Notes under the pieces: generated by a model
Seen by the model: the letters and a program-made list of their open reading frames with translations, nothing else
What the model was told of the DNA's origin: nothing
Databases searched by the model: none
Assembly: GCA_036630325.1 (NCBI GenBank)
Contig: CP142736.1
Span: 248,001-312,000, forward strand
Length of the DNA: 64,000 nucleotides
DNA from: Vairimorpha necatrix
Taxonomy: Eukaryota
Reading direction: 5' to 3'
Shown here: piece by piece, positions 1 through 58,237 of the stretch
Layout of the letters: the number at the start of each line of letters is the position of its first letter
How positions within the stretch are numbered: position 1 is the stretch's first letter
Translations under genes and position numbers: made by a program

Positions 1-82
1 AAAAAGGCGTATAAAGACTGTAAAACAAATCATAACGTTTGTTGCGAAATAAAAACAACAATTACCAGCCGAATACAATTTA

Positions 83-1324: not shown

Positions 1325-1433
1325 TAAATAATTAGCACTTTTAAAACACTTGTAAGTTGATTTGCGATGAGTTTATAAGACATTAGCTTTATGTTTCTGT
1401 CGCGCTTTTGGTATTTTGGTTTTTACGGATTTA

Positions 1434-2274
1434 GGAGCATTTCCACTTACACCCCCCCCCTTACATATATAAATACCAATTTTTAAAAATATCCCTGATT
1501 TTCGAAATTCAAAGCGGACAGAACGGGAAGCAGAAAAATCTAAAAAAAATTATAAATAAAACAAGATAATAATTAAAATAAACAAATTATTTTTTCGTTT
1601 TTTTAATTTTTTTTGTTTCTTTATTTTACTATCTACTTGATTAAATCTGTACTTATTATACATTTTATGTATAATAATAAGAAATATTATTTTATTTATA
1701 TATAATGAACATTTAACACAACTAAATTATAATTTATAACTTAAAAATATGTAAAATCATATATTAAATCAATTCATATAAATTGTATAGCAGTTTTTTT
1801 CTCATAGTTTACATCTTTTATGTTATAAAAAACATTTGAATGATTTAAAAAACATAAACATGAGATTTTGAATCTTCGTTGTCTATAAAAACTAATAAAT
1901 TAACAAAAATACTAATTTTTTATACATAGTAAAAATAATTATAAACAAATCTAATATCTGTTTAAAACAGCATAAAAATAATGAAAACATTACTATAAGC
2001 ATTAGAGTTTAATTATAATGACATAAAAAAATAAATATATTTTTATGTATTTAGACATATATTTTAACGCAATTTATGAAAAATGATACTTAAATTTGTT
2101 TTATTTCTATGTTTTACATATCATGAACAATCTAGAACTTAATAAAAATATTTTTTTGTACTTTAAAAATTATTTATTTTCTCCTCCTTTTTTTACATTT
2201 TAGTTTTGTAAAAAAAGGATATTGTTAAATTTTGGTATTTATATATCTAGGGGGATGTAAAGTGGAAATTGACC
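1434..2274. mobile_element. Non-autonomous TIR element (Merlin-type MITE), copy 1
   Basis: ~60-bp imperfect TIRs starting GG (GGAGCATTTCCACTTACACCCC / rc GGTCAATTTCCACTTTACATCCCC); 8-bp TSD CGGATTTA/CGAATTTA; AT-rich noncoding interior homologous to copy 2. Confidence 0.8.
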
Positions 2275-3554
2275 CGAATTTATTTGGTTATGATATTAAC
2301 GCTTTAATGTTTTATATAGTTGTAGCCCGTTTTGACGGCAATTTCGTCAGAAGTCAAATTCCCTACAGGTTGACATGCTGCTTTGATTACTTTTCTCACT
2401 ATGCATTCTGGCCGTGTAAATCTTGGCAAATTAAAGGACAAGTTCTAGCGTCTTCGCCGCAATGAACTGGATGTATGTTATACAAAGGGCTAAATTTCTT
2501 CTCCGCCTTGTCCTTCTTAGTAATTTATTTGTCTATTCTCTATATTATTTATATAAAACTTTTTATGTCCGATATTGATGTATTAAATTTAGATCGTTCG
2601 CAAAAAAAGTCCTATTCCGTTGACTTGGAATTCTCAACTTTAACATTCGATAAGGAATATTTTGTACATAAAACTGTAATTAAAAAATAGGAGTTAATTT
2701 ATTTATAAAATTTATAGTCCAAATATCAAATGACATTTATCAAATAATTGGATGAGATTTGACATATAATACTTCTGACAAAGTAACTTATAACAATAAG
2801 AATATCATTCTTATGGGCATGAATTTCGAATTAAATTTTATTTTCTCAATTTGTTGTTTTTATATTTGGGTTGTATTTAATTAAAGAGTATAACTAAAAA
2901 CAAGACTTATCTAAAAAAGGCATTATATGAAATATATCATTTACTTCAAAAAAATTTGACTAAAGTAACATGTCTTTTTAATTAGAAGTTATTTGTCAGA
3001 CGTTGCAGCAATTATACCATTACGACAATACTATAAAGTATCACATGAATGTTATGATTTTATACCAAGTAACGAGGTCAGAATAATTTATGAATATAAG
3101 GAAGAAACAAACACGAATGTTTTTAATGCTGGAAGGTCTACTATAGGTCGATATTAGACTAGAAACATACAAAATGTTAAAATATTTTAATATTTAAGAA
3201 CGCGCGAAAATTGAAAGCAATGCACGAGAATAAAAAATATAACAGTTTTACACGTGTTGATAGTTTAGCAATTTTTTTTGTCTAATTATTATTTTTAATT
3301 TTAGCAATAATTAATAATTTTTCATTTAAAATCTTGTTAATTATAAAATTATTCACGTATTTTTCTGCGGACTCATTATTTTTGACATCAATCGAAAATC
3401 TAAAAACAGACCCGACAGAAAGTATGTACAATCAAGGATGAAATCATAATTACTAATGAAAAAATAATTCATAAATTTATATCTAAACAAGTGATTAAAA
3501 CATCTTATTAATTAACAATATTTTAGCATTTAAATAATTTTTTTATAAGCCCAC

Positions 3555-13956: not shown

Positions 13957-14019
13957 TGTTGAATAACTATAAATAGCTATAATATTATTAAATACCCCTT
14001 ATGTCTACTATTCTCAACA
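13957..14019 (+). repeat. 5' LTR of element 1 (63 bp)
   Basis: Direct repeat of 17989-18051; TGTTGAA...TCAACA termini. Confidence 0.95.
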
Positions 14020-17000
14020 TGGCACCCGGTACGGAAAACTCGTATAGAAGGATGGAAGCACCCAACTTCAGTTTAAAAAGTGCACTTGTAGATTGCATGA
14101 ATTTGAAATATATTTTAAAGACAAAAATATAATTGTAGATGAGGAAAAAATAAACACCGTCTTATTATTTTCAGACGATGAAGCCGCTTATTTCTTATAC
14201 ACAAACAAAGAAAATTTTACAAAAATTACATGGCGAACATTTAAGGGAAGAATTAAAAAATACATGGAAAGGAATGCTTTAGAGAAAAAAATCAAAACAA
14301 AAATATAATGAAGCAACAGCAACTTGGATAAAAAGAGTTCTTCCCCTGGCAAGTGCAGCCAACTTGCCTCAAGAATATACTAAAATGCTTATTAAGAATA
14401 CATGTGTTAACTTAGATTCAATGTTGATTATCCAAGAATGTTTGATGGAACGTAATATTTACAAAGAGAAAGAAATGATACTAAAAGATATAGATGAAGT
14501 GGAATATATTAAGTAAACTGTAAAAAAGATTAGAGCTAATAGAGAGACAGTAATTAGAAGAAAAAGCGTTTCAGAGCCAAGACATAAAGAACCCATTAAA
14601 CAAACTGACAAAACTGAAATGAAAAAATTTAATCAATTAGTAAAAGAGCCTATAGATAATAACAAAAGTGATAATGTAACTGAGATAAAACTAAACAGTG
14701 TAAATATCTCCGCTTTTATGGATGAAGGATCAGATGTGAACATCATCAATGAAAAGAAGGTAGAAGAAAGAGGACTTATTGCATTACCCTGTGAACATAC
14801 AACAATAAAAAACGTGTTTGGGGTAGTAACAGAACTGACTAAAAAGGTAGAGGTAACATTAAAAATCAATGATATTATACTTACTCAGGAATGTTATGTA
14901 GGAGCTTTTAAGAATTCCAATGAAGACATAGTTATCGGCAGGCCAACGTTAAATAAAGTAAAAAACTTAAAAATGAACTTTTGAGCTTGTATGAAAATTT
15001 CCAAGGGTTTTTGATGGAAAGACAAGCAAAGGATACACGGATATAATGTGTGAGATAAACACACCGATAGGCAAGAGAGTGAATATAAAATACAGAAATA
15101 TACCACAGGCCCTAATGAAAGGAGCACAAGAAACAATTAACAAATTATTAGAACAAGGATATATAGAATGTTCGACATCAGCTTGGTGTAATCCCATAAG
15201 ACCAGTATTGAAACCAGATGGCACTGTTAGAATTACAAACAATATGCAATTTCTGAATAACCTAGTTGAAGATAACAACTATACAATACCTGTAATTCAA
15301 AACATAGTAGATGCCACGCGAGGCAAAAGATTTTTTACAGTTATAGATCTGACAGATGCCTACTATCAAATACACCTGAAACCTGAACATAAATATAAAA
15401 CCGCATTTTATTATAAAAGTAAACTATATCAATACACACGGATGCCACAAGGCTTTAAGAATTCACCTGGCATGTTTCAAATGATAATGGATAGATTACT
15501 TGAAAACCACCTTGAAACTGCTTGTTGCGTCTATTTAGACTACATAATAATTTTTGGAACAACAGAAGAAGAACATGACAATAACCTAGCTAATGTTTTG
15601 ACGATACTTGAAAAAAACAACTTCAAGGTTAACCCAACGAAATTACAATTTAAACAAGAAACTATTGAATTATTAGGAATGATGATTGATGGAAAAAAAC
15701 AATATCCAATAGAACAACATCAAAAAAAGGTATTAGATTTTAAAGTACCAACCACAGTTAATGAGGTACAAGATTTCTAGGATTAGCTAATTATTACAGA
15801 AGATTTATCTCAAACCTAGCTACAATATCTGCTCCACTTTATGAATTACTTAAAAAGAAGAAATTTATATGAAAGGAAGAGCAACAGAAAGCATTTGATA
15901 TTATTAAAGAAAGAATCAACAGTAAGATTGCTAGACATATTCCAAACTACCAAATTCTTTATACTATCCACCGACGCATCAAATACAGGAATCGGCGCAT
16001 GCCTACAACAAGAGCACAATAACGAAATTGCAGTAGTAGATTGGGCATCCAAGAAGCTGACAGATGCTGAGAAAAAATATGGAATTACAGAGAAAGAATT
16101 TCTGGCGATGGCTTGGAGTATTACACACTTTGATTATTATCTACGAGGAAGAAAGTTTAAAGTAATAACAGATCATTCTGCAATTTTATCTATGAAGGAT
16201 AAACACATTTTTGGAAACCTACGACTAGAACGAATGAGAGAAAAATTACAGGATTACGATTTCGAAATTGAATATCGAAAAGGCAAAGAACTAATAGACG
16301 CCGATGCAATTAGCAGGATTTATGAGGATCCAAAAGGGGTTGAAGAACTTAGAACTAAAAATAAAAACGTATTAATCGCTTCTGATGGAAAGTGGTACTA
16401 TAAAGTAAATGAAAATGAAATTAGATATTTCCCCGAAGTTCTTGAAAGAAAAGATATTTTATATAAAGCACACGAAGTAAACACCGTGCATGGTGGAATA
16501 AGTGCCATGACTTACGAATTGAAAAAGAACTATTATTGGCCAAAAATGACAGAATCGATAACAAATTATATAAAAAACTGTGAATCATGTGTCCGAAACG
16601 ATCAAAAAAGCTTAGGAGGTGAAGAATTTGTAGAAACACAAAGGCCGTTAGAAATATTTGGAATGGACCTAATGTTTATTGACCAGAAGACGACACTTAT
16701 GACTTGTATAGATTACTTTACACGTAGATGTATGATAAAGCCCTTAAAATCAAAGAAAGCTAGCGTTTGTAGAAATGAAATAACAGAAATGTTTCAAGAG
16801 ATTGGAGTTCCTGAGAAAATTATTACAGACAATGGAAAAGAATTTACAGCTACAACTATAAAAAAAATCATGTCTAATATGTTAGTAAATCACCATAAAA
16901 TATCTATAGACAAGCATCAGTCTAATGGTAGGATAGAAAGATTACATAGGAAAATTTGGCAAGCATAAAAAAAAATAGAATGTAATCAAAAGGAAACATT

Positions 17001-17355
17001 AGAAGAAATTTTATATGATGTAGAAAATAAAATTAACAATACATTTAATAGAGCAATAGGTTGCACCCCGAACGAAGCATGGGATGATCCTGATAATAAA
17101 ACATTGAAAGAATTGAATAAAAAAGATTCAAAATACGGAAAAGAATTTAAAAAACTTCCACGTGAAAAATTTAGAATTGGAGAACAAGTGTTTATTCAAC
17201 AAAATCCAATGCAGGCACAGGACAAGCTCAACGATAAATACATTGAAGAGGGAATGATACATACTGTGTTAGAAAATGACTCTTACTTAGTAAAAGTAAA
17301 CGATAAACTGATCAAAAAGAGCCATTCTCAGCTCAAATTAGTACCAACTATATGA
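14001..17355 (+). pseudogene. Fragmented gag-pol of element 1
   Basis: ORF fragments at 14093 (capsid-like), 14619 (protease, FMDEGS), 15046 (RT, YLDD mutated to YLDY), 15841 (RH-INT) and 17104 (INT C-terminus). Confidence 0.9.
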
Positions 17356-17458
17356 TTGCTTGTTATAAAACCAAAAGACATAAATTTTTATTTATTACCC
17401 TTAAATAGAAACAGAAACTAGTCAAAGAACTAAAAGTATATGTAGGTCAACTTAAAAT

Positions 17459-17962
17459 ATGGAAAGTAGACTCTTGAACCTGCAGTCCAATCTGAAAGAC
17501 GGAGAAACCTTCAATTATATAATTAGGAATGCAAGTACAGATTTGGGAGAGTATATATTACAAGAAGGTTTTACAACATGGAAGGGCATCGAAAAATGTG
17601 CCGAAGACCAAAAACTCACAGCTGACACCGTTTTAAAAGTATGTGCAAACACGAGGAAAAGCACTGAAACAGTAACTGAATATCTAGGCAGACTTGGAAA
17701 GGACTTAAAACGGCTTGGAGCCACGGATAAAATGATAATAAAATATTTAAGCCTTACTATTGCTATGGGAAATGTGGAAGTCCACATGATGTTAAGCCTA
17801 TACACTGATATGGAGGAATTTTTGGCTCACACTTCTAAAATACTTACAAGCAGAACAAGAAGGAATAAGCTCACCAATAAGAAAATTTGCAGTTTTTGTA
17901 AACAACAGGGACATGAATCAGAAAAATGTTTCAAAAAGCCAAATTATAAAAAAGATCAGTAG
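17459..17962 (+). CDS. Gag-like protein with CCHC zinc knuckle, inside element 1 downstream of pol
   Basis: MHR-like ETVTEYLGRL, C-terminal CSFCKQQGHESEKC, CCC motif at 17398-17400 upstream; the 5' end is probably frameshifted. Confidence 0.75.
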   Translation: MESRLLNLQSNLKDGETFNYIIRNASTDLGEYILQEGFTTWKGIEKCAEDQKLTADTVLKVCANTRKSTETVTEYLGRLGKDLKRLGATDKMIIKYLSLTIAMGNVEVHMMLSLYTDMEEFLAHTSKILTSRTRRNKLTNKKICSFCKQQGHESEKCFKKPNYKKDQ

Positions 17963-17988
17963 ACCGCAGTCTTTTTTTTTGGGCGGGA

Positions 17989-18051
17989 TGTTGAATAACT
18001 ATAAATAGCTATAATATTATTAAATACCCCTTATGTCTACTATTTTCAACA
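17989..18051 (+). repeat. 3' LTR of element 1 (63 bp)
   Basis: Direct repeat of 13957-14019, followed by TSD ATTAC. Confidence 0.95.
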
Positions 18052-30673: not shown

Positions 30674-30706
30674 TTGGGGCTTAAAAAAATTTATTTTTTT
30701 AAGCCC
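30674..30706. promoter_or_regulatory. 33-bp palindromic bidirectional promoter
   Basis: Perfect 14-bp inverted repeat GGGCTTAAAAAAAT-TT-ATTTTTTTAAGCCC places CCC next to both divergent ATGs. Confidence 0.75.
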
Positions 30707-36224: not shown

Positions 36225-37310
36225 TTATTCTTTTAATACCAAATGCCCAAGGATCATGAAAACGCATAAGAAAAAAACAAGCCAAAGTTTTTTACTTATA
36301 TATTTTTTAGGTATATATTGCGATACTAATAAAGCTGCAACACATACAATAGGAACAAAAACTGCATAACTTAAAACTCCAAATCTATAAGAAAATGCAT
36401 CCAGTTTAAAGCCAACGTCGGTAGAAGCATCTGTAGGAGCTATATCCTCATGCAATTTGGAGAAGACAGTATCAGAGGCGCTATTAAGAAGATTTTGGTC
36501 ATATGGTATTTCCATAATATTTAAATTAGAATCATTTTCTTTGACTAATTTTTTCGATGTATCACTATTGATTATAGATCTTTTATTTCTTGATTGTTTT
36601 TTGCCTCTAAATCCGTTTCGTATATCAATATTAATACTGGTTGGCTCTACAATTTGATCCTGTGTCTTAAAATATCCAACTATCTCACTACAGTAATGTT
36701 GTCGGGTTGGATTAAATACTCGTTCATGCTTTATATTCATATTCCACCTTCGATGTTCAGGTACACACTTGTTTAAAACGCCTTGTTTGATGAAAATATT
36801 CTCTTCACACGATACATCTCCTTCGCATGCTTGTATTACTAAACTTTTGGCACATCTTAGTTTATCAAAATGTTCTTGTTGGATACAATTCCTTTTATTG
36901 CACTCTTCGTTAAAAGTTTCCGCCGCATTTACGAACCTATCTTCTAAAATTTTTTTAGTATCTTCTTCTTTAAATCTTCTTACCAAGTCAGGCTTGCCAA
37001 ATGCTTCACCTTCCTCCTGGTTATAACAATTAATATTTGTATCAGTATTAAATAATCCATGCGTATACCAATTGCAAAAAGGATTTACCCATCCTTTATA
37101 TTTACTTTGGGCTAAATTATAAATAGTAACTAGTCTTCTTTCGTTACAATGGACACATTGGTTGTATTTTCTAAGTAGACATCTCAAAAAATTTTTGTGA
37201 ACATATATTGTCTGAGTATTATCTTTGCAATGCATGTTGGCGTACATTATTTCTGATGCCATGGAGTCAGCTAATTGTTCGTCAGACTTAGGATTTTCAG
37301 TATCACACAT
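36225..37310 (-). CDS. Cys-rich protein with RNKR site and two C-terminal hydrophobic helices, family copy A
   Basis: CCC-ATG at 37310 aligns with the paralog start; first ~245 aa highly similar to 42198-43283. Confidence 0.88.
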   Translation of the reverse strand: MCDTENPKSDEQLADSMASEIMYANMHCKDNTQTIYVHKNFLRCLLRKYNQCVHCNERRLVTIYNLAQSKYKGWVNPFCNWYTHGLFNTDTNINCYNQEEGEAFGKPDLVRRFKEEDTKKILEDRFVNAAETFNEECNKRNCIQQEHFDKLRCAKSLVIQACEGDVSCEENIFIKQGVLNKCVPEHRRWNMNIKHERVFNPTRQHYCSEIVGYFKTQDQIVEPTSINIDIRNGFRGKKQSRNKRSIINSDTSKKLVKENDSNLNIMEIPYDQNLLNSASDTVFSKLHEDIAPTDASTDVGFKLDAFSYRFGVLSYAVFVPIVCVAALLVSQYIPKKYISKKLWLVFFLCVFMILGHLVLKE

Positions 37311-37859
37311 GGGATAAAATTTTTTTATTGAATTTAAATACATGTCAAAATTCTAATTTTTTTTCATTTTTATATAGATAGCTCGGAGATAGTTTATAAC
37401 TCGACAATTAAAAAAACGGAATTTGTCTTTTATTTATTGATGTATGTCAAGACCACAAATGTCAAATCTCAACAGCAACAAAATATCAATATAATACATA
37501 TATAGAACAAGAAATATTTTTGCATTTTTTTAAACTAATGTTTTTTTTTGTAAAAAAAAATTAGAGAGTTGTTTCAAACTTATAATTCACATTTTTTCAT
37601 GCTTACTTTAAAAATTTATAACTTACGTCTTTGAACTTATTTTAATAATTTAAAATGTTGTTTTATCGACACATGTCAAAATTTCAAATTTTTTTCACTT
37701 TTGATTATTTTATGATTTTTAAACACCAGACATAAGACATATAAGTTTTTTGTACTTATCCTATTCGAATTATAAATTCGTACGTTTTTTCTTTATTTTA
37801 CCATATTATTGACTTTTTGATTCGACTTTCTTTATTTTACAAATTTTAATCTGCAAACA

Positions 37860-38749: not shown

Positions 38750-41700
38750 AGTTTTTGCACGAGTAATGGGAATAGCTTTCTCTTACTTATATGATAAATG
38801 CTGTCAATAATATAGTACTCTTTTTACTCACATTCTCTGTCCATTTTTTGCAACTTCCAAAATGTTTTTAAGTATTGCAGATTATGCAGCGGCTTTGATT
38901 TGGCTATTCGCTTAAACCATTTTTGAATGTAGGTGGTATCTGTAGAGACCACCTTTTGTTAAAATAAACGCAGAAACTTAGACTTGTGTTTATACATAGA
39001 ATCTGCATGGTTTGCAAAGAGATCATGCTTACACCTGTTTTTATTCCTACTGTTCTTAGTTATAAAGTCTAATAAAAGCATTTTTTACAACGATTATTTC
39101 CCAAATACTTTGTACATTATATGAATGTCGTGTTAATTGTACTTAAATATGTATAAAGTCCCCATCTTTTCTCTAAGGTTTATAGTAATTCGGACTTGTA
39201 AAAAGCAATTTTTTCTCATTGTATATCCTGCAAGCCCGTAGCCGCAACATATCTGTAGACATATGTACTCTAGAACTTCGTTATGCCTTCGTATATAATT
39301 ATATTGCAAAATTATTTCACCAAAGTCGGCATGAGGTCGTTATTACCTCTCATAAAAATATTTTCTTAGTGATTACACAGTTTATGGTTACTAAGTTTAT
39401 ATTTACTTTTGTAAACCATAACGAAGTCACCTATATCAGTTTATGTTATTTCCTATGTTCAATAAATTTTTTGGTAAAAAATCAGGTTTCAAATCCACTA
39501 AAAGGTAAGTCATTGGGTTTCTAGTTTTCATTTTAAGACTTCGCTTTCTAATTTGACTTAAATTCCAAAAAAGCCTTAATCTTAGAAAGGTAGATATTTT
39601 TATTATTTTCTATTTTAAACAGAAATTTCTTTTTTGGTTCCTTCTGTGACGTCTATAACTTAAGGAATTGCAAAACCATTTCTTGCCAAGAAATTAGACA
39701 TTAAAAAGACTCCTGTTTGGCTTTTATCTCGGTAAGTGTGTCCGTTGCCGCGAAGGTATATAACGTGTGAGGTGTTGCAACAAATATTTCCAATCTTTTA
39801 TACGGATGTTTAATGTTTGAAGACTTTTCTGAAATGATCTTTGCAAGCTAAGCAACGTACTGTATTCATTATGGCCTTTTATAAAATCTAGGGTTGAGCT
39901 AAGTTTGCTAATTTTTCTGTATTTTTTCAATCGCATTGTATATCATATTCTTGTTTGATCTAAGTTTTTCTCTTAGAATATTCCGTAATTTCTTTCATCT
40001 ATATCCAAGTGTGACAATAAAAGTTTGGACTTTCTTAACAACCAACATGGTGGTTCTCTTCCAACTTGATTTTGTAGCTGTCATAATAAAACATATTTTC
40101 ATTCTTAAAAAATAGTTTAATTTATCAACACGAAATAACCTATACATGCAAAACTTCGTTTTCGGCCTTTCCCATTATGTGTTTTTCATAGAGCTTCATA
40201 CAGAGAAGCTTATCGCTTGATAAACGAGAGATACGGCAAAGCTCTTAAAGACTTTTCTTTTTGGTACATGGCCGTTTGGAACCCGCTTTGGGAAAATGAA
40301 CCCGCTTTGGGAAAATAAAGTCGCATTGAAATTTTAAAGGACCCCCTTTAAAAAATGGCAAAATTGGTAAAAACAATGTTTGTTGAGGCAGATGTGGTTT
40401 TGAGTGATGAAATGTATTTATAATGGAATATAAAGAAAAGTTTATTTTGGAAACATTTGATGCTGAATCGGCGTGCGCCTTGCTCGTTTCTGTAACTAGT
40501 AGAATACTGCTTTTTCCTTGAGGTGATACAAGAAAATGTATAACCTGTTTCTATATGATCTCTAATCAATGGGTAGCATATGATGTCATATTAGCTAAGC
40601 AAAGGGATGGAGCACAGTACTAAGAATCACTCCATAAATGCCTAACCTCTAGCGATTCTGAGCCACATAATATTATATAATTTAGTTGGTTTCGGCTCAT
40701 TCCTATAAGAGATATTTGATCTTAACATAATCAAAGAAGAACACTATGAGTACCTTTTACAGTTTCACTAGGCTTTTCAAATTCCCAAAAATTAACGGAT
40801 AAATTGTCTTCTGTCATTATTTAAAATAAATCATCAAGTCCTTTTTTTATAACTTTTTTTTATTTTTCCCTTTTTTTGAATTTTTCAAAGCGGGTTTATT
40901 TTCCCAAAGCGGGTTCATTTTCCCAATGCGGGTTCCAAACGGTCATGCACCAAACTTTTTTCTGATTTTTTCCTAGGATCTTATTCTAGTGCAGAAAATT
41001 CTAGTTAAGTTAATAAAAAACATATATTTATCAACGATTTTGCTAGGGGTTCGACAAATGTAACATGATAAGTAAGTAGGCCAAAGCCTGCGCAAAATTT
41101 ACATATAAACTCATATTTTTTTTATTCACATAGCTTGCCCAGCTCCAATATCTTTCGATTGTTCACAAGATGTTTGCTTAACGATAACTGCGTTTGGTTT
41201 TTATACATTATATTTAAGTTCTCCAGTACTTAGGAATGTTATTGTTCGCATTTCTAGGTTAGTTTATGAATTTGACACTCAAATAATTAGTTGGTAAATA
41301 ACTTCTAGAGGTAAAGTTTTTTCTATATTATGAATTTAGGCCCTTTGTGATTTCTACTTCAGTTTTTTTTTTTACGAATCTTTCCTAAGCGGCATAAAGA
41401 CCTTTAAATATGTGTCGAGCTTGGAAAAAAGAAGTTAAAATTTTGCCTAATCTTCCCTGATAAGTTGCCTTTTAATAAGTCTAATAAACTTTAAAAGAAA
41501 CAACTTTTTTCCAGAATATTTTCTAGGAACAGTCTATATAATTATGTTTTCGCTTTCTTAATATGATATTATATTTTCATTTATAATGATTTAAGGTCTT
41601 TCAAATAGGACATTTGTACTAGTTGTGTTCAAGTGCAATATCTATTTTTATGTCTCCGTAGGGCGGCCTCGAATAAGCTCACATTTTTTGTTCTCTCTTC

Positions 41701-42197: not shown

Positions 42198-43283
42198 TTA
42201 TTTGATTAATGCTAAACAAACTAAAATGCCAATTAGGCACAAGAAAAAACCAATACAGTATTTTTTAGTTAAAAATTTTTCAGGTGGACATTTCGTTATT
42301 AAATAAGCAACAACACATATAAAGAGAACTAATACTGCATAATTGAATATTTCAAACGTATATTGATAATCATTTAGTGAAGAGGAAACGTTAGAAGAGA
42401 AGTCTGCATTCGAATTTTCCTTGCGTGAGTGAGAAACCACAGCATTATAGATTTTTTTAAAAGAATTTTGCTCGCTTGGTATTTCTATAATATTATTATT
42501 CGAAACATTTTCTTTGACTAATTCTGTTGATGAATCATGTTTTTCTAAAGATCTTTTATTTCTTGATTGTATTTTGCCTCTAAATCCGTTTCGTATATCA
42601 ATAGTAATACTAGGTGGTTCTACAATTTGATCCTGTGTCTTAAAATATCCAACTATCTCACTACAGTAATGTTGTCGATTTGGATTAAATACTCGGATAT
42701 GCTGAATATTCATGTTGCTCCTTCGATGTTCAGGTACACACTTGTTTAAAACGCCTTGTTTGGTGAAAATATTCTCTTCACACGACACATCTCCTTCGCA
42801 TGCTTGTATTACTAAACTTTTGGCACATCTTAGTTTATCAAAATGTTCTTGTTGAATACAAGTCCTTTTATTACACTCTTCGTTAAAAGTAATTGCCGCA
42901 TTTACGAACCTGTCTTCTACAAATTTATTTGTATCTTCTTCTTTAAATCTTCTTGCCAAGTCAGGCTTGCCAAATGCTTCCCCCTCCTCCTGGTTATAAC
43001 AATTAATATTTGTATCAGTATCAAATAATCCATGTGTATACCAATTGCAAACAGGATTTACCCATCCTTTAAATTTATTACAGGCTAAATTATATATAGT
43101 AACTAGTCTTCTTTCATTACAATTGACACATTGGTTGTATTTTCTAAGTAGACATCTCAGGTAATTTTTATGAACATATATTGTCTGAGTATTATCTTTG
43201 CAATGCATGTTTGCGTACATTATTTCAGATGCCATTGAGGCAGCTAATTGTTCGTCAGACTTAGGATTTTCAGTATCACACAT
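42198..43283 (-). CDS. Cys-rich membrane-anchored family, copy B
   Basis: Intact 361-aa ORF, CCC-ATG, RNKR, two C-terminal hydrophobic segments. Confidence 0.88.
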   Translation of the reverse strand: MCDTENPKSDEQLAASMASEIMYANMHCKDNTQTIYVHKNYLRCLLRKYNQCVNCNERRLVTIYNLACNKFKGWVNPVCNWYTHGLFDTDTNINCYNQEEGEAFGKPDLARRFKEEDTNKFVEDRFVNAAITFNEECNKRTCIQQEHFDKLRCAKSLVIQACEGDVSCEENIFTKQGVLNKCVPEHRRSNMNIQHIRVFNPNRQHYCSEIVGYFKTQDQIVEPPSITIDIRNGFRGKIQSRNKRSLEKHDSSTELVKENVSNNNIIEIPSEQNSFKKIYNAVVSHSRKENSNADFSSNVSSSLNDYQYTFEIFNYAVLVLFICVVAYLITKCPPEKFLTKKYCIGFFLCLIGILVCLALIK

Positions 43284-43858
43284 GGGATAAAATTTTTTTT
43301 ATTGAATATAAATACATGTCAAAATATAATTTTTTTTTCATTTTTATATAGATAGCTCAGAAATAGTTTATAACTCGATAATTAAAAAATTAATTTTTCT
43401 TTTATTTATTGTTGTCTGTCAAAACTCAAAAGTCAAATCTCAACATCAAGAAAATTATAGATCACCTATTGATGGCATACAAAAATTGCATTGTTTTAGC
43501 AATATTTTCAGGTAAAGGGGTTGTTTGTTAATATATCTAATTTAATGCAAATATTTGAAAAAAGTAGTTTATGTTTTTAATAAATAAACACTTTGCAAAG
43601 TAATAGTTATATGCCATTTTATCGTTAAGCATACAAATATAAATTTCATTATCTTTGACACATGTCAAATCAAAAAAAAAATTCAATATTTTTTTATTCT
43701 TAATAATCAATTATTGTTTTACATAATCGTAAAATTGACTAGCCGATTAAAATATTTAATTCAACTCGTATTATAAATACAAACATTTTCATTATATTTT
43801 ATAATGTCTAAAACCTTTCAATCTGATCCTGTTTATCACACAAAATCAAAGAAATATA

Positions 43859-44898
43859 GGACCTTCGGGCCGAAATTCACCTTTTTTTGATGTCTTCAAA
43901 TTTTCATTTTTTCACCCCAAAAAATGAAATTCCCAAAGTTGAGGAAAAGAGAGATTGAAGAGAAAATAATACAACAAATAAAAATCTTACAACTTAGCAA
44001 TTGTAAAATATGCAATGAAGAGCTTACATCATACACAAAAAATAAGTATGAATATATGAAATGTACAAATAAAATATGTCCACTATATAAAAAACATATT
44101 AATGTTTGGAAAGGTACAATATTTAGTCATGTAAAAATTTCTAAAGTGAAATTTGTCGAGGTTATTGACCTCTGGTTATCAAAATGTAGTGTGGATACTA
44201 TTTCATACGTAACCAAAATTGATAAAAAAGTTATATGGAGAATATTGAAAAAAACTAGTGAAGTACTAGTTAAAAAATTCTACCAAAACATTGAATATAT
44301 TGGAATCCTGGTGAAACAGTTGAAATGGATGAGTCAAAGATTGGAAAGAATAAATATAATCGTGGACATCCAGTAGGAGGAGTTTGGCTATTTGGAGTAG
44401 TTGAAAGAGATGGTAAAAAAAGAGTCATATTATTTCAAGTTAGTGATCGTACTAAAAGTACGTTAAAATTTCACATTAAAAATAGTGTAAAAGAAGGTAG
44501 CAAATTATATTCTGACTGTTGGAAGGGATATACGGGCATTCAAAATGAAGGTTATAGTCACCACACTGTAAACCACTCTAAATATTTTAAAGATCCCGAG
44601 ACAGGAATACATACTAATACTATCGAAGGAACATGGTCTGGTTTAAAACAGCATATACCATACAGATGTAGAACAAGGAAATTAATTAATAGGTATTTAG
44701 TGAGGTACATGTTAATAAAAAACTATAATACTCATCCAGTAATAAGTTGTTTTAACGTAATTTAATATGAAAAATTAAATATTTAAAACTTTTATTTTTT
44801 TTTTATTTTCTTCCTCAACTTTTGGAATTTCATTTTTTGGGGTGAAAAAATGAAAATTTGAAGACATCAAAAAAAGGTGAATTTCGGTCCGATCAACC
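43859..44898 (+). mobile_element. Merlin DNA transposon with frameshifted transposase (43924-44765)
   Basis: ~85-bp TIRs; zinc ribbon, DESKIGKNKYNRG, SDCWKGY, VNHS, HTNTIEGTW; one frameshift near 44305. TSD unclear, so ends are +/-8 bp. Confidence 0.92.
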
Positions 44899-45152
44899 CA
44901 CATTTTTTATAATAATTATCTCATTTTTTTCTGAAAATAGATCAGCAAATCACGTCATAAACAGGAAGAGAGATGTCTTTGGAAAAAAAAAACAAGCATT
45001 AGTTAATTAAAGAATTAATAAAACAAGTTTTTTTTTAATTAAGATGTTTTGTAAGGTTGTTGTTTTTTTTCCAACATTGTCTAAGTATATGCCGACTAGT
45101 TTAATTTTGCATTTTTATTTTATAATTTATTGACGAGTTTAAATAATGTTAT
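44899..45152 (-). pseudogene. Second decayed ARL copy, split by the Merlin insertion
   Basis: ACGTCATAAACAGGAAGAGAGATGTC, AAGATGTTTTGTAAG.TTGTTGTTTTT, GACTAGTTT and GACGAGTTTAAA match 56597-56850. Confidence 0.8.
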
Positions 45153-45548: not shown

Positions 45549-46528
45549 GGTTAAAGGGCAGTCTGGTGGCCAAAAATCCCTTAAAAGGAATTTTTAAAAA
45601 AATCACCCCAAAAAATGAAAAGTCAAGAGGAAAAAAATAAAAACTTAAAAATCATTTTAATAATTTTATCAAACAAATTCCCTTCAAAATTTCTTCTAAG
45701 CATAAATCCTAACAAAGAACTCTTTATTAATTTTTTTGTTCTATGCCTTATGGAAGTTTCACTTTTAACAGCGCTCCAATTACCTTCGATAGTATTAGAA
45801 TGGCATGAATTATTTTTATTAACCAATTCTTTTGAATGATTAACCGTCTTATGTTGTTGAAAAATTGAACACAACCTAGAATATGAAGAGAAGCAATCAC
45901 TATGTATGATAGATTCTGAGTTAACATATTTTTTTTAAAAGTTCTTCTAGTGTAGTTGCTCTTCTATTATCAACAGGAACAAACACAATTTTCCTTTGAG
46001 GTGTTCTTTCTACCATTCCGAAAATCCAAACTCCTTCTACCCATGGCCTCTATGGTATTTTAATTTACCAAACTTACTTTCATCTATTTCCACAACAATC
46101 CCAGGTCCTCCTATTATACCTGTTTCGACGTAAACAGAATTTTCGATGGAATTTACTGTTAAAGAAATGATTTTTCTTACACTTTTAATGCTAATTCCAA
46201 GAAATTCCGCAATAGCTTTATACTTTACATTAACAGACCATGATTTAATAATTAATAACATAGTATTAATTCCAAGCTTGTTATTGTAGAATGGAGTGTT
46301 TTTTTAATAAAGACCATTTACTTCTACATTTAGACCAACCACATCGAAAAATAAAATTTTCATTATATTTTTTACTTATAGAACCACATTTTATACATGA
46401 TTTGCTTGTTTTTTCAATATATTTTAAAAAAATTTCAAAAAGTTTTTCCTCTTGACTTTTCATTTTTGGGGTGATTTTTTTAAAAATTCCTTTTAAGGGA
46501 TTTTTGGCCACCAGACTGCCATAGCTCC
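45549..46528 (-). mobile_element. Merlin DNA transposon with broken transposase
   Basis: Perfect 9-bp TSD GATGTATAA; ~85-bp TIRs; VEIDESKFGKLKYHRG, VNHS and HSNTIEGNW in three ORF fragments. Confidence 0.95.
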
Positions 46529-47960: not shown

Positions 47961-50165
47961 CAATGAAGAAAATTTTTAATCGATTATTAAATATATTTCG
48001 GTCTTGTAGGGCACATAACTTATTTCTGTCGATGTATTCGTGTTACCTACTTATAGCCATAGTGATGAATTTTTAATGTTGACTATTTCATTTTATTTGC
48101 CCTAAACAACTTTTTAATTTTTTCGTATTTTAAATTTTTTTATATTCTAAGCTTATTGTTTCATATGTATTAGTGTGTTAACCCGTATTTTTCATTTTTA
48201 ATGGCAATGCACTTTTGCATCGATATTTTTTGTCGATATATGACTTGAAGATTATAACTGTAACAGATCTTACGAAGATGTACTTAAAAACTTTGTCACA
48301 CCTTCGCATATAATAATGTTCCAACATTATTCCGCACGAGATGCCATGCAACCAGTCTTTTTATTTTTCAATATATCGTGAATTTCTAGTCCTTTTGCAG
48401 AATATGATCTTTTTTTGCAAAGCACGGCGCAGCCTCTTCTTTCGTTTATAATTACAATGTAAGCCACAACGACAAGTCACAGCATTGAAGTATAGTCCCA
48501 TCTAGTTCATTATAGTTTAGTTAAGTAAAACTACGTTTCTAATATCACATTCTAGTTTCATTCATTATGCTTTAAGTATTTTTTTGTAAGTTCATTTTCC
48601 TTTTATATTAAAATTTCTTAAAAGCCTTAATTTCGGTAGGTGTATTAAAAGAAAAAAATCTGTTTAAGTAAGATCTTGATACTCAATGAAGATTATCCCG
48701 AGTTGTTTAAAACATAAATGTATAAAATAGGATCTTTCCTTCTTAGATATTACATTGATAAGCAATGATCTAATCAGTCTCGAAAAATACAGCTGCTTTT
48801 GACAAAAATGCTATGATTGAAGTGAATTTTTTTGTAAAAAAATTATATTTTCGCATTCGATATTTTTCTCGCGGGTATTTATACTATATAAAATTATCTT
48901 ATAATAAAATTTTTATTTTTTGTCAAGAATAATATTTTCTGTTTTACTTTTGAATGTATAATCCTGTTTTAATCTTCCTTTTTAATCTTTTATTGTCATA
49001 TTCACGCAATATCCTTCTGTGATCATAAAAGTTTTGTGATATCTCTACACATATTAGTTTTTAAGGCAAACATCTCAAATTTGCCTCAAGACAACTTCGA
49101 GAATTAAATTTATGTTTCTGATATAGTTTTTATACTATCTAGCATTTTAAATCGTCAACGAATAACAAAAAAAACTCTTGATTACTATACTCTTTGTCTC
49201 GTCTTGTCCACCAAGTTGTTCATTTAGCTTCTTATCTATGAGTTCTATGCACAGCACAACATGAAAGAGATAAGCGTATTTACAGGAATTTCTTTTAATT
49301 AGAAATTTTTAATTTTTTGCTCATATCTTGCCTCAAGTGGCAATCTTCTAGCTAGGTCACAAAGAGAGTCATTCATCTTAAAATTTATAATATTTTGATG
49401 CTTTAATGTCTGTATGTTTTACAGTGCCTTGGCCTTGTCTTCGACTTCCATGCTGTTTATACCTAAGTAATGTTGTTGTTTGAAATATTATTTCAAAGCA
49501 TTGCTCATAGTATCTTGAACTTTCATATTTGTCATGAATTTCTCATATAATAATAATTTACAATTAAAATTTTAATCTTATGTGTATTAAATATAATAGA
49601 AACTTATATAAATTTAACATGTTATCGTTCGGTGGTCCTTCGTGAGTTTGATAGGGGGTTGTTATTGAGTGTGCAAGCACATTAGTTGCCTATATAAATC
49701 CTTTTTCATTCAATCTTAAAGTGAATACACGGCGTCTACTTCTTTATGGGTAATTTCAAGCTTTTTAATGATAAAGTAATACGTTTTGCGCCGTATTGCT
49801 GCTTTTAGCTGTCCCTCTTTATATCTATATGTTTTCCATCTATGAAGCAATATTCGCCGATGTTGAATTGAACGTCTTTTAAGGACCCGAAAATTTTTTT
49901 GTCTGTCAATATTTTCGATCGGAATTCTTAAATTTGCAAAAAGGCTAATTATTGCTGCGATTATTTCTCGTTTTTTTTGTTGGATTCTATAAAGGCGAAC
50001 TCAGAACGCACAAATATATGGTTTTCTTTTTAAAAGTGTTTTATCCTTGCTTAATATTGTAACTTTTCTTTTATACATTTTTCCAATAGTTTTACATATA
50101 TTTCCCAACAGCTTTGGCCTCATCAAGGATTATAATTTTTTTAGATTGCTTCTTTTGTTATTTTA

Positions 50166-50214
50166 TGTTATATATTCTTATATTTCTGAACCCCATTTAT
50201 GGTAAATAAATACA
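50166..50214 (+). repeat. 5' LTR of element 2 (49 bp)
   Basis: Direct repeat of 53259-53307. Confidence 0.95.
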
Positions 50215-53200
50215 TGTGGGCGATACCGAATCGTGAGCTAACAAGTGTTGGCTGTTTTCAAGAGGCCAGAAGGTTATTAGAAGAGCTTAAGAGGATTGTT
50301 TATGGACTGATATTGTCTGATTATGATTTTGAGAAAAATGTAAAGAAGGAGATTTTTGAAATGAACTGATGAGTTGAAAGAATTTATGGTTAAGAATATT
50401 AAGATTGGAGATCATTGGAAAGTTATGGAAACCAAATTAGAGGAATTGGTTAAAGTACAGGAGGGAAAGGGTATGAGATTACGGATGATTGAGGAGGTCA
50501 CAAAGATGGTGGCAGAGGAGATTAATAAATATTAGTAGAGAGGAAAGAATATTTGAAAAGAGAGGAACAATGAGGTGTTATAATTGTTCAAGAATGGGAC
50601 ATATAAATCAGATGTGTTATTATAGATATAGAAATGTTAAGAATAAAGACGAATGTGACAAGATTAAAGATGAAGGTAGCAGTAGCTGTGATGAAAGGAC
50701 TTATAGGAACACATAGGATGCTAAAAGACAAAAGAAACAAGAATGGAAGACAAGAATAAAAGATGTTATGATGAGGTAGAAAAGAACGTTCTAACATTAG
50801 AAGACATGAGAAAGAGGTTTAGGAACGTTATAGATAACGAAGAAGAAAAAATAAGATATTGTAATATTGAAAAATGCAGAATCAGAACTGAAGAAGGTAA
50901 AAAAGTTATAAGTAAGGGTCAGCAGGTGCTACAAGCGCATAAAGAAGAGCTGAGAAAATATATTCAGAAGTTAGAGACAAGGAATGTCATAAGAAGATCG
51001 ACGTCGGAATGGAGAAATCCGATTAAAGCTTTAATTAAGCCAGATGGAAGTATAAGACTGGTTAGCAATCTCATGGCATTAAATGATTTAGTGGAGAAAG
51101 ACCCTTATGAATTGGTGAACATTAGGGATATCATAAGGAACACGCAAGGGTCGAAGTTTTTCAGTGTTATAGACCTTAAGGAGGCTTTTTATGGAATCGA
51201 AATAGAGGATCAAGACAAGCATAAGACTGCATTTGAGTATGATAAGATAGTATATGAATGGAATAGTATGGTCATGGGGTTTAAAAACTCGCCTCAGATC
51301 ATGCAGAGAATTATGAATAAGATTTTTGAAAAACATTTGGGTGGTAAAATAGAAGTATACATGGATGATATAGTGATTCATGCGAAGACTAGAAAAGAAC
51401 ATGATAAATTATTTGTAGAAGCGATGAAATTGTTAGAACGGAATAATATGCGGATAAATTCAAAGAAAATTAAGTATTGCCAAAAGGAAGTCAAGTTATT
51501 GGGAGTTACATTAAACGGATATGATATGATGCCGTCTGAAATCAAGAAAAACGAAGCACTAGAGTTTCCAACGCCGCAGAATGTGTCTGACATAAGAAGA
51601 TTTTTAGGACAAAGTGGATGGTTTCGAGGATTTATTAAGAATTATGCGGAGAAGACATTATATATGACTGAAAGTTTGAAAGGTAAAAGTAAAGTATTGA
51701 ATTGGACTGATGACTTAAATAAAGAATTCGAAAATATGAAGGAAACGTTAAGAAGTATGAGTAAGTTGAAAATTGTGAACTATGACAAAGAATTTTTATT
51801 AAGAACTGACTCGAGCAATATAGGAATGGGCGCAGTACTCATGCAGAAGAATGATAAAGAAGAGTGGGTGCCAGTACAATGGGCATCGAAGAAATTCACC
51901 TCGACGTAAACTAGATATGGTATAAGTGAAAAGGAAATGTATGCCATATCTTGGGGAATAAAGAAATTTGAGTATGAGTTAAGAGGATGAAAATTTAAAG
52001 TAGAAACGGATCACAAAGCATTGGCGGAAATAAGAAGAAAGCCGTGTTTTAATAATAATAGAATTAATCGATGGATTGAAAAGATCCAAAAATTTGACTT
52101 TGAAATAGATTACAGGAAACCAGAACATATGGTCGTGGCGGATGCTTTGAGTAGGATACACGAGGAGGTTGATCCGAGAAAAGAAATTATAAAAAAAGAA
52201 GTGGGCGTCAAATTGAAGGTAAATGGTTGAAGCACGTCGAGACAATAGACGGTAAAGAATACTGGAATTTTGATTCGGGGAGGAAAGCATTGATTCCTAA
52301 AATAGAAGAAAGAGATGAGCCTATGAGACGTTATCATGAAGAGCATGGACACAGAGGACTAGGAAGCATGTATTATGCCATAAAGTTTGATTATTATTGG
52401 CCAGGAATAAAAGAAGATATAGTGAAAATGATAAAAAGATGCGAGGAGTGTCAAATTTACAATAGGAAAAGATCTGGAGGATTTGATTTTGTTGCTAAAA
52501 GCAGGTATTTAAAAAAAGTAGCGTTAGATTTAATTGATTTTAGAGATAAGGGCAAATATGTATTAGTTGCGATAGTTTACCATACGAGGATAACGTGGGG
52601 ATGTGTATTATACGATAAGAAGAGATCCTCTGTGGCCCAGTTTATTGAGAACTTATGTAGAAATGGCAGGAGGCCGAAGGAAATAATAACGGATAATGGG
52701 AAGGAATTTGATAATGTTGACTTTAAGATTTGTGTAGAAAATTGGATATTACCCATAATAAGGTAGTGTCGAGTCTCATAGAAGCAATGGTAGAGTTGAA
52801 AGAGTTATAGGAATGCTGAGAGAGCTAATGTTGAATTGAGCAAAAAGACGGCGAGTTTTGAAGACATAGTGATGGATAGCTTTAAAATTTATAATAATAG
52901 TTACCATGAAGGTATAAGAAGTACTCCCAATGAAGCGGTAAAAGACAATACGGGGAAAATGATGATATTAAATGGACCAGAAGGAGAGGAGACTACAGTA
53001 AAAGATTTGTTAGAATATATAGAGAGCGGTTTATTGAAGGACAACGAGTTAGGATAGCTAAGAAAGAAATATCAAAGGATGTAATAAATATGAAAAGGGG
53101 AATGTTTTTAGACGAAGGTATTATAATGGTGGTATGCCCTGGGGACTCGTATGTTGTATAGCTATCTAATGGGCGATATGTTAAAAAGAGACATTATGAC

Positions 53201-53258
53201 TTGAAAAATCTGCTTAGGGTCGATGGTGATGTAGGAGACTAACCGTCTTGGAGGGGGA

Positions 53259-53307
53259 TGTTATATATTCTTATATTTCTGAACCCCAATTATGGTAAAT
53301 AAATACA
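53259..53307 (+). repeat. 3' LTR of element 2 (49 bp)
   Basis: Direct repeat of 50166-50214; preceded by the PPT and followed by the TSD. Confidence 0.95.
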
Positions 53308-53679
53308 TTTTATATTTATCTTGATTTTTTTGTTCTCATTGTATTGAATAATAAGCTCATTCAGCTTATAAGTTCTCTTCGCCCTTCTAGCGCTCATTCA
53401 AGGTGCTATTTTTTATTTTTTATACATTAATGTCTATAATAAATAAATCTTTCTAATTTGAAATAATAAAATAATAATGCAAAAAGATAAATTTAATATT
53501 AAGAAACGTACAACGCAAATATTTCTAAAAATTATCAAATTTATGATTTAAGCTTTTAATTAGCCTAACGTAAATAAAAATTTTATATCGATACCATAAT
53601 CTATATATTAAAATTTTTAAAAAGTAAATATAATTAAATGCTGATATCTTTCATATAATACAGTAGTACAATGAATTAT

Positions 53680-54744
53680 TTATTTCTTATGTGCAGAAAA
53701 ACCAAAGATCACAAATAAGCATAAGGAAAACAAGCCGAACCCTTTTTGCTGTAAATTTTTTTAGGCAAAAATTTAATGATAAAATAAGCCAAAACACATA
53801 TACTAGAAACTAATACTATATAGTTACACATATATGCATTAGGAAATATATTCAATACAGAGGAAACATTAGTAGAAATATCTGTAGAAGGTATCAAAGC
53901 CACTGAAGTAGAGTCGTTTGTAAACTATTTTGATCCTTTTTTAACTCCATAATGTTAAAATTAGGTTCGATTTCTTGATAAAATCTTCTGATTTTTAAAA
54001 ATTGTTTAAAGATGTTTTATTTCTTGTCTGTCTTTTGCCTCTAAACTCGTGTCTTATATCAATGTCAGCACTGGGTGGTTCGAGAAGTCGTACTTGTGTT
54101 TTAAAATATCCAACTACCTCATTATGGTAACGTTGATCATTTTCATTAAACACTCTTTCGTGATTAATGTTTATATTCCTCCTTCGACGTTCAGGTACAC
54201 ATTTGTTTAAAACTCCTTGTTTGATGAAAATATTCTCTTCATACGACACGTCTCCTTCGCATGCTTGTATGACTAAATTTTTGGCACATCTTAGTTTATC
54301 AAAATGTTCTTGTTGAATACAAGTCCCTTTATTGCACTCTTCGTTAAAAGTTTCCGCCGCATTTACGAGCCTGTCTTCTACGAATTTATTAGTATCTTCT
54401 TCTTTTAATCTTCTTACCAAATCATGTCTACCAAGTACTTCACCCTCCTCTTGGTTGTAACAATTAATATTTGTATCTGTATCATATAATATATGAGTAT
54501 ACCAATCACAAACAGGATTTGACCAACCTTTAAATTGATTGCGAGCCAAATTATAAAGGTTAACCAATCTTCCATCATCACAATTGACACATTGGTTGTA
54601 TTTTCCAGTAGACGCCTCAGATAATTTTTTTGTGAACATATATTAATTGAGTGTTGTCTTCACAATGCCTATTAGCATACATTATTTCAAGATGCAAATA
54701 TTTTAGCTAATTCTTTGTCAGATATATAATTTCGTTGCGCACAT
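53680..54744 (-). pseudogene. Cys-rich membrane-anchored family, copy C (frameshifted)
   Basis: ORF fragments 53995-54639 and 53709-53903 match copies A/B; CCC-ATG at 54744; RNKR changed to RNKT. Confidence 0.85.
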
Positions 54745-57224: not shown

Positions 57225-58237
57225 GGCTAAAGTTAGCTTTAGCTAACAAAAATGCATATAGGGTTTTTTTTCTTTTTTTTGCCCCTTTTTTAAAAAATGG
57301 AGGAGAGAAAACGATGAGGAAGGAACAAAAACAAAAATCAGAACAATAAATTTAATAATGCATCAAAAACAGAATTAGATGCATTTCTTCATAGTATACC
57401 TAATAAATAAAATTTGGCACTATTTGCAGACCTATTTCGGTTAGGTATAGAATTTTTGAGTGATCTCAATTACCTTCTATGGTATTGGTATGAACCCCAG
57501 TATTAGGATCTCGAAAGTGTAATGAGTGGTTGACCATGTGATGTTGCTTGGAATCATTACCCAAGGAACGGTAAGCCTTCCACATATCGCTGTATATAGT
57601 ACTTTCCGTGCTCACATATTTTAATAAAAGGTCAGTAAGTGCTTTTTTATCTCTTTTTTTAATATACGTAATATTTATAGTTTGTTTTAAAAAACGCTCT
57701 ATCATTCCAAAACACCAAAACCCTTTCACTAGTTTACTTCTATATTACTTATTTTTCCAATTTTAGTTTCATTATTTCTAATATAATATCTCCCCTGCCC
57801 ATCTTGTCCAAAGATGATAAATATTTATCATAAATGTCTATTTGCTTTAGCTTTTTTAAATATAATGATTTTGAAGGTTTTGAACAACATAAAATTTGGC
57901 TAATATACTTACGAGGATATCCTAGAAGCCACAAATTAAGTATCTGCAAAATTGTGATATGATCGAGTCTAAAGTTTTCAAAGAATGTGCCTTCCACATT
58001 GAAATGTCTTCCTACAGTCCTTCCAAGTACATTTTAAGATAGTGACCTGTTTACTAAACAACCTCATTCTACCATTACACACTTTGGATAACTGTTTCTT
58101 TTTTTGTCAAATAAATTATTATAGACTGTTTCCATTTCTGCTCTAGTCATAATTGTCTCCTCCATTTTTTAAAAAAGGGGCAAAAAAAAGAAAAAAAACC
58201 CTATATGCATTTTTGTTAGCTAAAGCTAACTTTAGCC
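57225..58237 (-). mobile_element. Merlin DNA transposon with broken transposase
   Basis: Perfect 8-bp TSD ATACCATG; ~80-bp near-perfect TIRs GGCTAAAGTTAGC...; SDMWKAY, VNHS, HTNTIEGN. Confidence 0.95.

Follow-up and report, generated by a model that had tools for sequence, protein, structure and literature searches.

The window, that is, the whole stretch of 64,000 nt that was analysed from Vairimorpha necatrix (contig CP142736.1, positions 248,001–312,000, forward strand), contains at 50166–53307 an element that is confirmed to be a decayed Ty3/gypsy-type LTR retrotransposon of about 3.1 kb in a microsporidian host. The host genome is AT-rich and 15.0 Mb in size over 12 contigs, and its genes are compact and eukaryotic. 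Named homologues of the element come from Vairimorpha, Nosema and Pseudoloma. The features of the window copy, together with the gene of its putative primer elsewhere in the genome, are as follows.

50161..50165, no strand: left target-site duplication TTTTA; the same 5-mer follows the 3′ LTR
50166..50214, plus strand: 5′ LTR, 49 bp, TG...CA
50191..50194, plus strand: CCCC, a putative core promoter motif of host type, 5–8 nt upstream of the ATG
50199..50369, plus strand: start of the polyprotein frame at an LTR-internal ATG, running through the primer-binding site (PBS) and ending after 56 codons in this copy
50205..50210, plus strand: AATAAA within codons 3–4, with 4 nt of LTR after it; in the 3′ LTR a candidate poly(A) signal
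50214..50216, plus strand: second ATG, in frame, spanning the LTR/PBS junction with no spacer
50215..50228, plus strand: PBS for the host tRNA-Pro(AGG), 13/14 in the window copy
50229..50724, plus strand: broken mini-gag and linker, with no protease; CX2CX4HX4C zinc knuckle at about 50576–50617
50725..51909, plus strand: open piece with reverse transcriptase (RT) and the start of RNase H (Pfam RVT_1, E 7.7e-32; RT_RNaseH_2, E 5.9e-18)
52173..52766, plus strand: open piece with integrase, H2C2 zinc finger and core (Pfam Integrase_H2C2, E 9.9e-15; rve, E 2.4e-06)
53250..53258, plus strand: polypurine tract (PPT), abutting the 3′ LTR directly
53259..53307, plus strand: 3′ LTR, 49 bp
53308..53312, no strand: right target-site duplication TTTTA
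G000:C12:839045-839116, minus strand: tRNA-Pro(AGG) gene

The two LTRs of the window copy differ by a single mismatch at position 31. The junction ATG is made of the last base of the LTR and the first two bases of the PBS, and the AATAAA is read in frame as Asn-Lys. The first-pass annotation had described a 49-bp LTR with CCCC, an ATG at 50199, AATAAA and an ATG at the LTR end, and all of these were located as it described them. The order CCC, ATG, AATAAA occurs in 0.1% of 5,574 AT-rich 49-mers taken from the window, and AATAAA alone in 21%. The frame that it read from 50199 is indeed open for exactly 56 codons, but this length is a product of decay and not the natural frame of the element: the window copy is 96.4% identical to an uninterrupted natural copy (L095), from which it differs by 11 non-triplet indels.

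Several other mobile or repeated sequences were seen in the window. A second retrotransposon, LTR 1 (13957–18051, plus strand), has 63-bp LTRs, an ATTAC duplication and a PBS that matches 15 nt of tRNA-Lys(CTT). Compared by eye, its LTR has only the ends TGTT...CA and the CCCC-ATG layout in common with the 49-bp LTR; the CCCC-ATG is accompanied by an in-frame junction ATG, as in the 49-bp family. LTR 1 also carries a protease-like frame in which DEG replaces D[ST]G, and after the integrase an extra frame of 168 aa (17456–17962) with a zinc-finger match. Units of about 0.7–1.1 kb between inverted repeats of 58–98 nt lie at 43849–44908, 45557–46520, 57225–58237 and 40260–40954, the first of which contains a piece of an IS1595/Merlin-type transposase. 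A repeated gene with no Pfam match is present on the minus strand in three copies of 78–91% DNA likeness (36225–37352, 42198–43298 and 53995–54642).

The length of the LTR was examined through its other copies. A 28-nt LTR pattern has 70 matches in the genome while its reversed control has none, and the LTR is therefore not a product of chance. From these, 41 LTR pairs were examined, among them the window copy, five members of one sister family and one insertion present as three duplicates. The two LTRs measure 48–49 bp in 36/41 pairs, none exceeds 52 bp, and the range stays at 48–52 bp when five solo LTRs are counted in. The latter were found among eight unpaired matches with long flanks, the others being one full element and two 3′ LTRs; their target duplications are exact in three cases and have one mismatch in two. 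The statement of the first-pass annotation that the LTR is this short, and not part of a longer consensus, holds, as no longer form occurs in the 41 pairs and the solo LTRs agree. That the true LTR is nevertheless longer, or that the 49-mer is an artefact of assembly or of boundary calling, has next to no probability. The 16/41 pairs without an exact target duplication would fit such a reading, yet exact 5-bp duplications flank the 48–52-bp boundaries in 25/41 pairs (28/41 if one mismatch is allowed), with flanks that differ between loci, and the PBS and the PPT adjoin the LTR ends. The solo LTRs and the duplications at variable flanks refute it. The annotation had further placed these LTRs below the default thresholds of common detectors; this holds for LTRharvest, for which Table 1 of PMC2253517 gives a default minimum LTR of 100 bp, and LTR finders run with such a default floor will consequently miss these families.

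The exact target duplications prefer T at position 1 (18/25) and A at position 5 (20/25). Among those 25, copies L110, L126 and L127 have common flanks and are one insertion duplicated. Targeting of tRNA genes in the manner of Ty3 was rejected, for none of the 70 LTR matches lies within 300 bp of any of 63 tRNA genes.

The primer, which the first-pass annotation had left to be identified, is best matched by the 3′ end of the host tRNA-Pro(AGG) among 50 distinct tRNA genes, which were recovered from 62 of 63 listed Rfam matches. In an ungapped comparison, the PBS matches this tRNA at 14/14 nt in 15/41 copies and over at least 12 nt in 30/41; the PBS as quoted by the annotation has one mismatch. 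Self-priming of the Tf1 type is needless once this match is known. The LTR and the PBS meet at CA|TG with no spacer in 35/41 copies. The ATG at the LTR end arises automatically because CA directly meets the TGG of the PBS, and it needs no function of its own.

The reading frame was followed in natural copies, each read singly rather than as a merged family-wide gag. The LTR ATG of L095 opens a frame of 1,014 codons that passes the PBS and reaches the end of the integrase. Uninterrupted natural copies are open for about 1,010–1,040 codons, from the LTR ATG through PBS, mini-Gag, zinc knuckle, RT and RNase H to integrase. In 33/41 copies an ATG lies 15 nt before the LTR end, and in 32/41 it shares the frame of the junction. 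The claim that the LTR ATG opens the gag frame is thus borne out, since natural copies read so, and at the DNA level gag does not start downstream of the PBS. Among the 21 full-size copies nearest to the window's own family, the whole frame is kept in only one, and this family is mostly dead.

Five sister families were found in the genome, with LTRs of 48, 49, 49, 49 and 38 bp, in each of which the LTR contains an in-frame ATG, 15 or 9 nt from its end. The scan for them produced 26 records, of which five lack an LTR call and one was called wrongly. Among the properly called sister copies, identical LTRs were counted in 19/19, exact duplications in 18 and frames of at least 1,000 aa in 16; the sister families hold many young copies. 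One family (L235–L237, on C2, C11 and C3 of G000) has 49-bp LTRs that end in TA and not CA, with ATTAAA upstream of the CCC and frames of 1,014 aa. Another (L238–L242) has 38-bp LTRs and a length of 3.07 kb and is primed by tRNA-Arg, with a match of 13 nt to Arg-TCG. At a separate locus (L227, G000:C1:920000-924200) there is a frame of 1,102 aa, which begins unlike a retroelement Gag; its start resembles an in-frame fusion to another transposase.

The layout of the LTR follows that of host gene starts. The CCC is kept in 32/41 5′ LTRs. In the window, 12/14 ORFs, a set that includes two paralogues and one transposon frame, have a CCC no more than 15 nt ahead of their first or second in-frame ATG, against 3.7% of 2,323 ATGs; the suggested reading of CCC shortly upstream of an ATG as a gene-start signature of the host is thereby supported. 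For instance, the genes for the ribosomal proteins L13e (minus strand) and S9/S16 family (plus strand) are divergent, their ATGs separated by only 33 nt (30674–30706). This spacer is nearly palindromic, has a CCC before either start and is as long as the part of the LTR upstream of its ATG. In Encephalitozoon cuniculi, 5′ UTRs shorter than 7 nt, downstream of a CCC-like motif, have been described (PMC2803860).

Alternatively, translation could begin at the junction ATG, with the upstream ATG tolerated or unused; the PBS would then be coding and the LTR would not. In LTR 1, as in each of the six families without a protease, the junction ATG is in frame, although this may stem from shared ancestry alone. 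The N-termini of homologous proteins, judged by eye and on proteins only, were also compared: among 20 homologues that appear whole at this end, 14 start with M-x(2-5)-[NHDY]-M-[AGV], four with a Met of the junction type and two with neither, and eight further matches are partial and stand outside this count. The first pattern is the translation that would be expected of a junction with an upstream ATG, while the four annotated from the junction-type Met agree with a start at the junction. The position of the CCC favours the upstream ATG, as it lies 5–8 nt before the first ATG and 20–23 nt before the second, compared with within 15 nt in host genes. In addition, the upstream ATG is kept in the 33/41 copies noted above and in 6/6 families, and if the leader to the junction ATG were under 7 nt, R would not be long enough for strand transfer. 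A start at the junction is consequently considered quite improbable.

AATAAA is present in 40/41 5′ LTRs and 34/41 3′ LTRs, and the stop codon of 8/14 host ORFs in the window overlaps with this hexamer. It is unlikely, with some room for doubt, that the LTR AATAAA is incidental, a product of Asn-Lys codons in AT-rich DNA, and that transcripts end at variable downstream signals of the host and perhaps start by read-through in the flank. Within the ORF the hexamer shows no depletion (7 occurrences against 6.0 expected; undepleted in 5/6 families) and, as the 21% of 49-mers above indicates, it is frequent in DNA of this composition; poly(A) signals are often read through in E. cuniculi as well, according to PMC2803860. 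What argues for a signal is that A(A/T)TAAA stays in the LTR even where it is noncoding. In the 38-bp family it precedes the ATG, and in the sixth family, in LTR 1 and in the retro L element of Anncaliia (PMC4202319) it precedes the CCC. The overlap with host stop codons points the same way. An additional idea, that an internal AATAAA past the knuckle would yield a gag-only RNA, was unsupported: the hexamer is present there in 4/6 families, absent in two, and occurs at the level of chance.

The window element is probably what remains, after decay, of a miniature Ty3/gypsy-derived retrotransposon built on the compact gene grammar of its host, with functional roles assigned by analogy. The proposed steps are these. 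LTR nt 1–33, AT-rich and with the CCC, would act as the promoter. RNA would start as in host genes, less than 7 nt before the ATG, at about LTR nt 27–33. For strong-stop DNA to jump, the RNA would need to begin at some distance upstream of the PBS; the start codon would lie inside the LTR because the host ties the RNA start to the ATG while the element needs R before the PBS. R would then be about 16–23 nt and run to the LTR end. The AATAAA of the 3′ LTR may direct cleavage at the LTR end or just past it, in the host flank; since 4 nt of LTR follow the hexamer, cleavage would be at or beyond the LTR end and U5 would be at most 4 nt. Priming at the LTR boundary would cause the right end of the cDNA to stop at CA. 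The polyprotein would work uncut, or cut by a protease encoded elsewhere.

The Gag part of the polyprotein is small. The CCHC knuckle lies at aa 127–140 and is nearly invariant in alignment A1, with a Pfam score of 17 bits against a cut-off of 20.8. The N-terminal 95 residues are confidently predicted to form four helices (aa 19–95), followed by a long helix. This model matches the Arc C-lobe (Z 5.9, rmsd 2.9, 66 residues aligned) and the Ty3 capsid NTD (Z 5.5, rmsd 3.1, 70 aligned), in both cases tied with unrelated helical proteins. With the Gag part folded alone, a capsid-lobe match appeared at rank 43 (Z 5.4), and a Foldseek search with the Gag part returned no match at E 0.001. On these models, the mini-Gag may be one capsid lobe, which is no more than a lead.

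No protease was recognised between Gag and RT. In the 1,014-aa protein (P0001), Pfam identifies the knuckle, below cut-off, followed by RT, RNase H and integrase (rve, H2C2), and no protease even at E 1. A protease family is present in 0/28 of the best homologues, compared with 5/10 distant ones. For 25 aligned members, no retroviral-type aspartic protease is among 25 of the 35 domain families matched, and one weak Peptidase_A17 match was obtained (E 0.047). With a profile of 12 proteases from related elements, the score stays at or below 5.1 bits in 35/35 sequences of the lineage, none of which yielded an aspartic protease, and reaches at least 10 bits in 12/21 other proteins outside the seed. 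The linker between knuckle and RT was modelled, at low confidence, without a protease fold. There are exceptions in the linker: that of P0015 has a DTG, and the knuckle-to-RT spans of P0015 and P0024 (177–178 aa) are as long as those of protease-bearing relatives.

In a FastTree phylogeny of RT–RNase H (63/67 sequences, 421 columns), the 40 protease-negative sequences form one clade with a support of 0.99, nested among protease-bearing gypsy-like relatives and including a Pseudoloma-named protein. The tree is rooted on an arbitrary distant protein and was built from sequences other than named reference elements; P0081 and P0036 were dropped for insufficient length in this region, L236 and L237 as near-duplicates. 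The sister group of the clade is weakly supported (0.80), and the sole other negative row is cut at its N-terminus. The simplest reading of this topology is that the protease was lost once, in one ancestor. A metagenome scan gave 80 loci at 24–35% identity, none of which is a close member.

The lineage may not be self-sufficient, and may rely on a protease, and perhaps a capsid, supplied by gypsy elements of this genome that do carry a protease. Such elements are present, and one of them (L243, G000:C6:780500-787000) has an open frame of 1,259 aa, without a zinc knuckle motif. Borrowing would also agree with a Gag of only about 125 aa before the knuckle, and with the maturation of Ty1 and Ty3 by proteolysis as described in PMC4974528. 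Nevertheless, the protease-negative clade is old and broad, as its 40 sequences and their support indicate, and RT, RNase H and integrase are whole. Frames of at least 1,000 aa were counted by eye in about 49 of the 150 RT matches listed, versus 1 of the 20 protease matches listed, the two listings giving minimum numbers. Moreover, Gag–RT elements without a protease are known, namely DIRS (PMC3783388). Borrowing is therefore rather doubtful, and a polyprotein that is uncut, or cut by the host, and acts in cis is only slightly favoured over help from another retroelement. A bolder reading, put forward tentatively and less likely than not, is a self-sufficient lineage that neither encodes a protease nor makes extra Gag and may do without a conventional capsid. 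Its polyprotein of about 1,000 aa would stay uncut and consist of one small helical Gag lobe followed by knuckle, RT, RNase H and integrase. The RNA of the lineage would be leaderless, with no U5, and an R of 16–23 nt would serve as coding sequence, poly(A) signal and integrase end at once.

The element is filed as a Ty3/gypsy-derived lineage and not as a canonical member of the Metaviridae, because the aspartic protease between Gag and RT is absent. The Ty3/gypsy features found are direct TG...CA LTRs with a 5-bp duplication, a tRNA PBS and a PPT, the order RT–RNase H–integrase and the CCHC knuckle. Ty1/copia membership is ruled out, as the integrase is not upstream of RT. Natural copies with whole frames of 1,003–1,037 aa rule out a non-coding TRIM or LARD, and rve and H2C2 domains in place of a tyrosine recombinase rule out DIRS/Ngaro membership.

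The element would work like a Ty3/gypsy element with a coding PBS of the Ty1 kind. In Ty1, GAG starts inside the LTR and the PBS lies directly against the LTR, the Ty1 LTR being several times longer than the 49-bp LTR; Tf1 has a single ORF, as has the present element. Ty3 and Tf1 resemble it in the order RT–RNase H–integrase, the CCHC knuckle, the tRNA PBS and the PPT, but both encode a protease. The PBS of Ty1 is likewise inside the GAG frame (PMC4974528); according to the same source, however, Ty1 is 5.9 kb long, has a protease, the order PR–IN–RT and two frames and is primed by tRNA-iMet, and in Ty3 the CA, spacer and NC are cut from Gag. DIRS and Ngaro are similar in having Gag, RT and RNase H with no aspartic protease (PMC3783388), but they use a tyrosine recombinase and lack a DDE integrase, whereas here the integrase is of DDE type with direct LTRs and 5-bp duplications.

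Closer relatives in layout are found among microsporidia; general LTR motifs and the wide occurrence of such elements in microsporidia have been described (PMC3601003, PMC3614468, PMC2387174). Parisot et al. (2014; PMC4202319) described three Ty3/gypsy groups with a single polyprotein, and the element shares with these groups the single polyprotein in place of separate gag and pol. Their Table S1 lists for Anncaliia algerae an element, Aalg retro L, with an LTR of 50 bp, an ORF at 32–3049 and a total of 3,127 bp. Compared by eye and in layout only, retro L is like the window family in its CCC-ATG in the LTR, in-frame junction ATG, absence of a spacer and zinc knuckle, and unlike it in the AATAAA lying upstream of the CCC. 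For the complete Anncaliia elements tabulated in PMC4202319, the ORF start falls within the LTR length in 43/50 (counted by eye), while most of the LTRs there are 100–270 bp, compared with 48–52 bp here. The word "protease" is absent from the main text of that paper, and LTR size and coding LTRs are undiscussed in the passages covered. A literature search, mostly at the level of abstracts, returned no account of microsporidian elements that lack a protease, nor of how their LTRs are built; Xu et al. 2006 (PMID 16797019), on the Nbr elements of Nosema bombycis, may bear on novelty.

A short coding LTR alone is the less surprising part, since similar numbers stand in a supplementary table of 2014 and the PBS of Ty1 is coding; as a row of that table in PMC4202319 it is already on record as data, apparently undiscussed. 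What a specialist would not expect is a lineage with a mini-Gag and no protease that has many young copies. Several families with young copies make do without a protease and with a Gag of about 125 aa, a putative promoter of about 33 nt and a predicted R of about 20 nt, which indicates how minimal an LTR element may be. The leaderless transcription of the host, together with the need for R, would give a simple reason why gag starts in the LTR in microsporidia. Proteolytic maturation is regarded as a general step in the replication of LTR retroelements, and a broad protease-less lineage would make the question whether maturation is dispensable testable on natural material.
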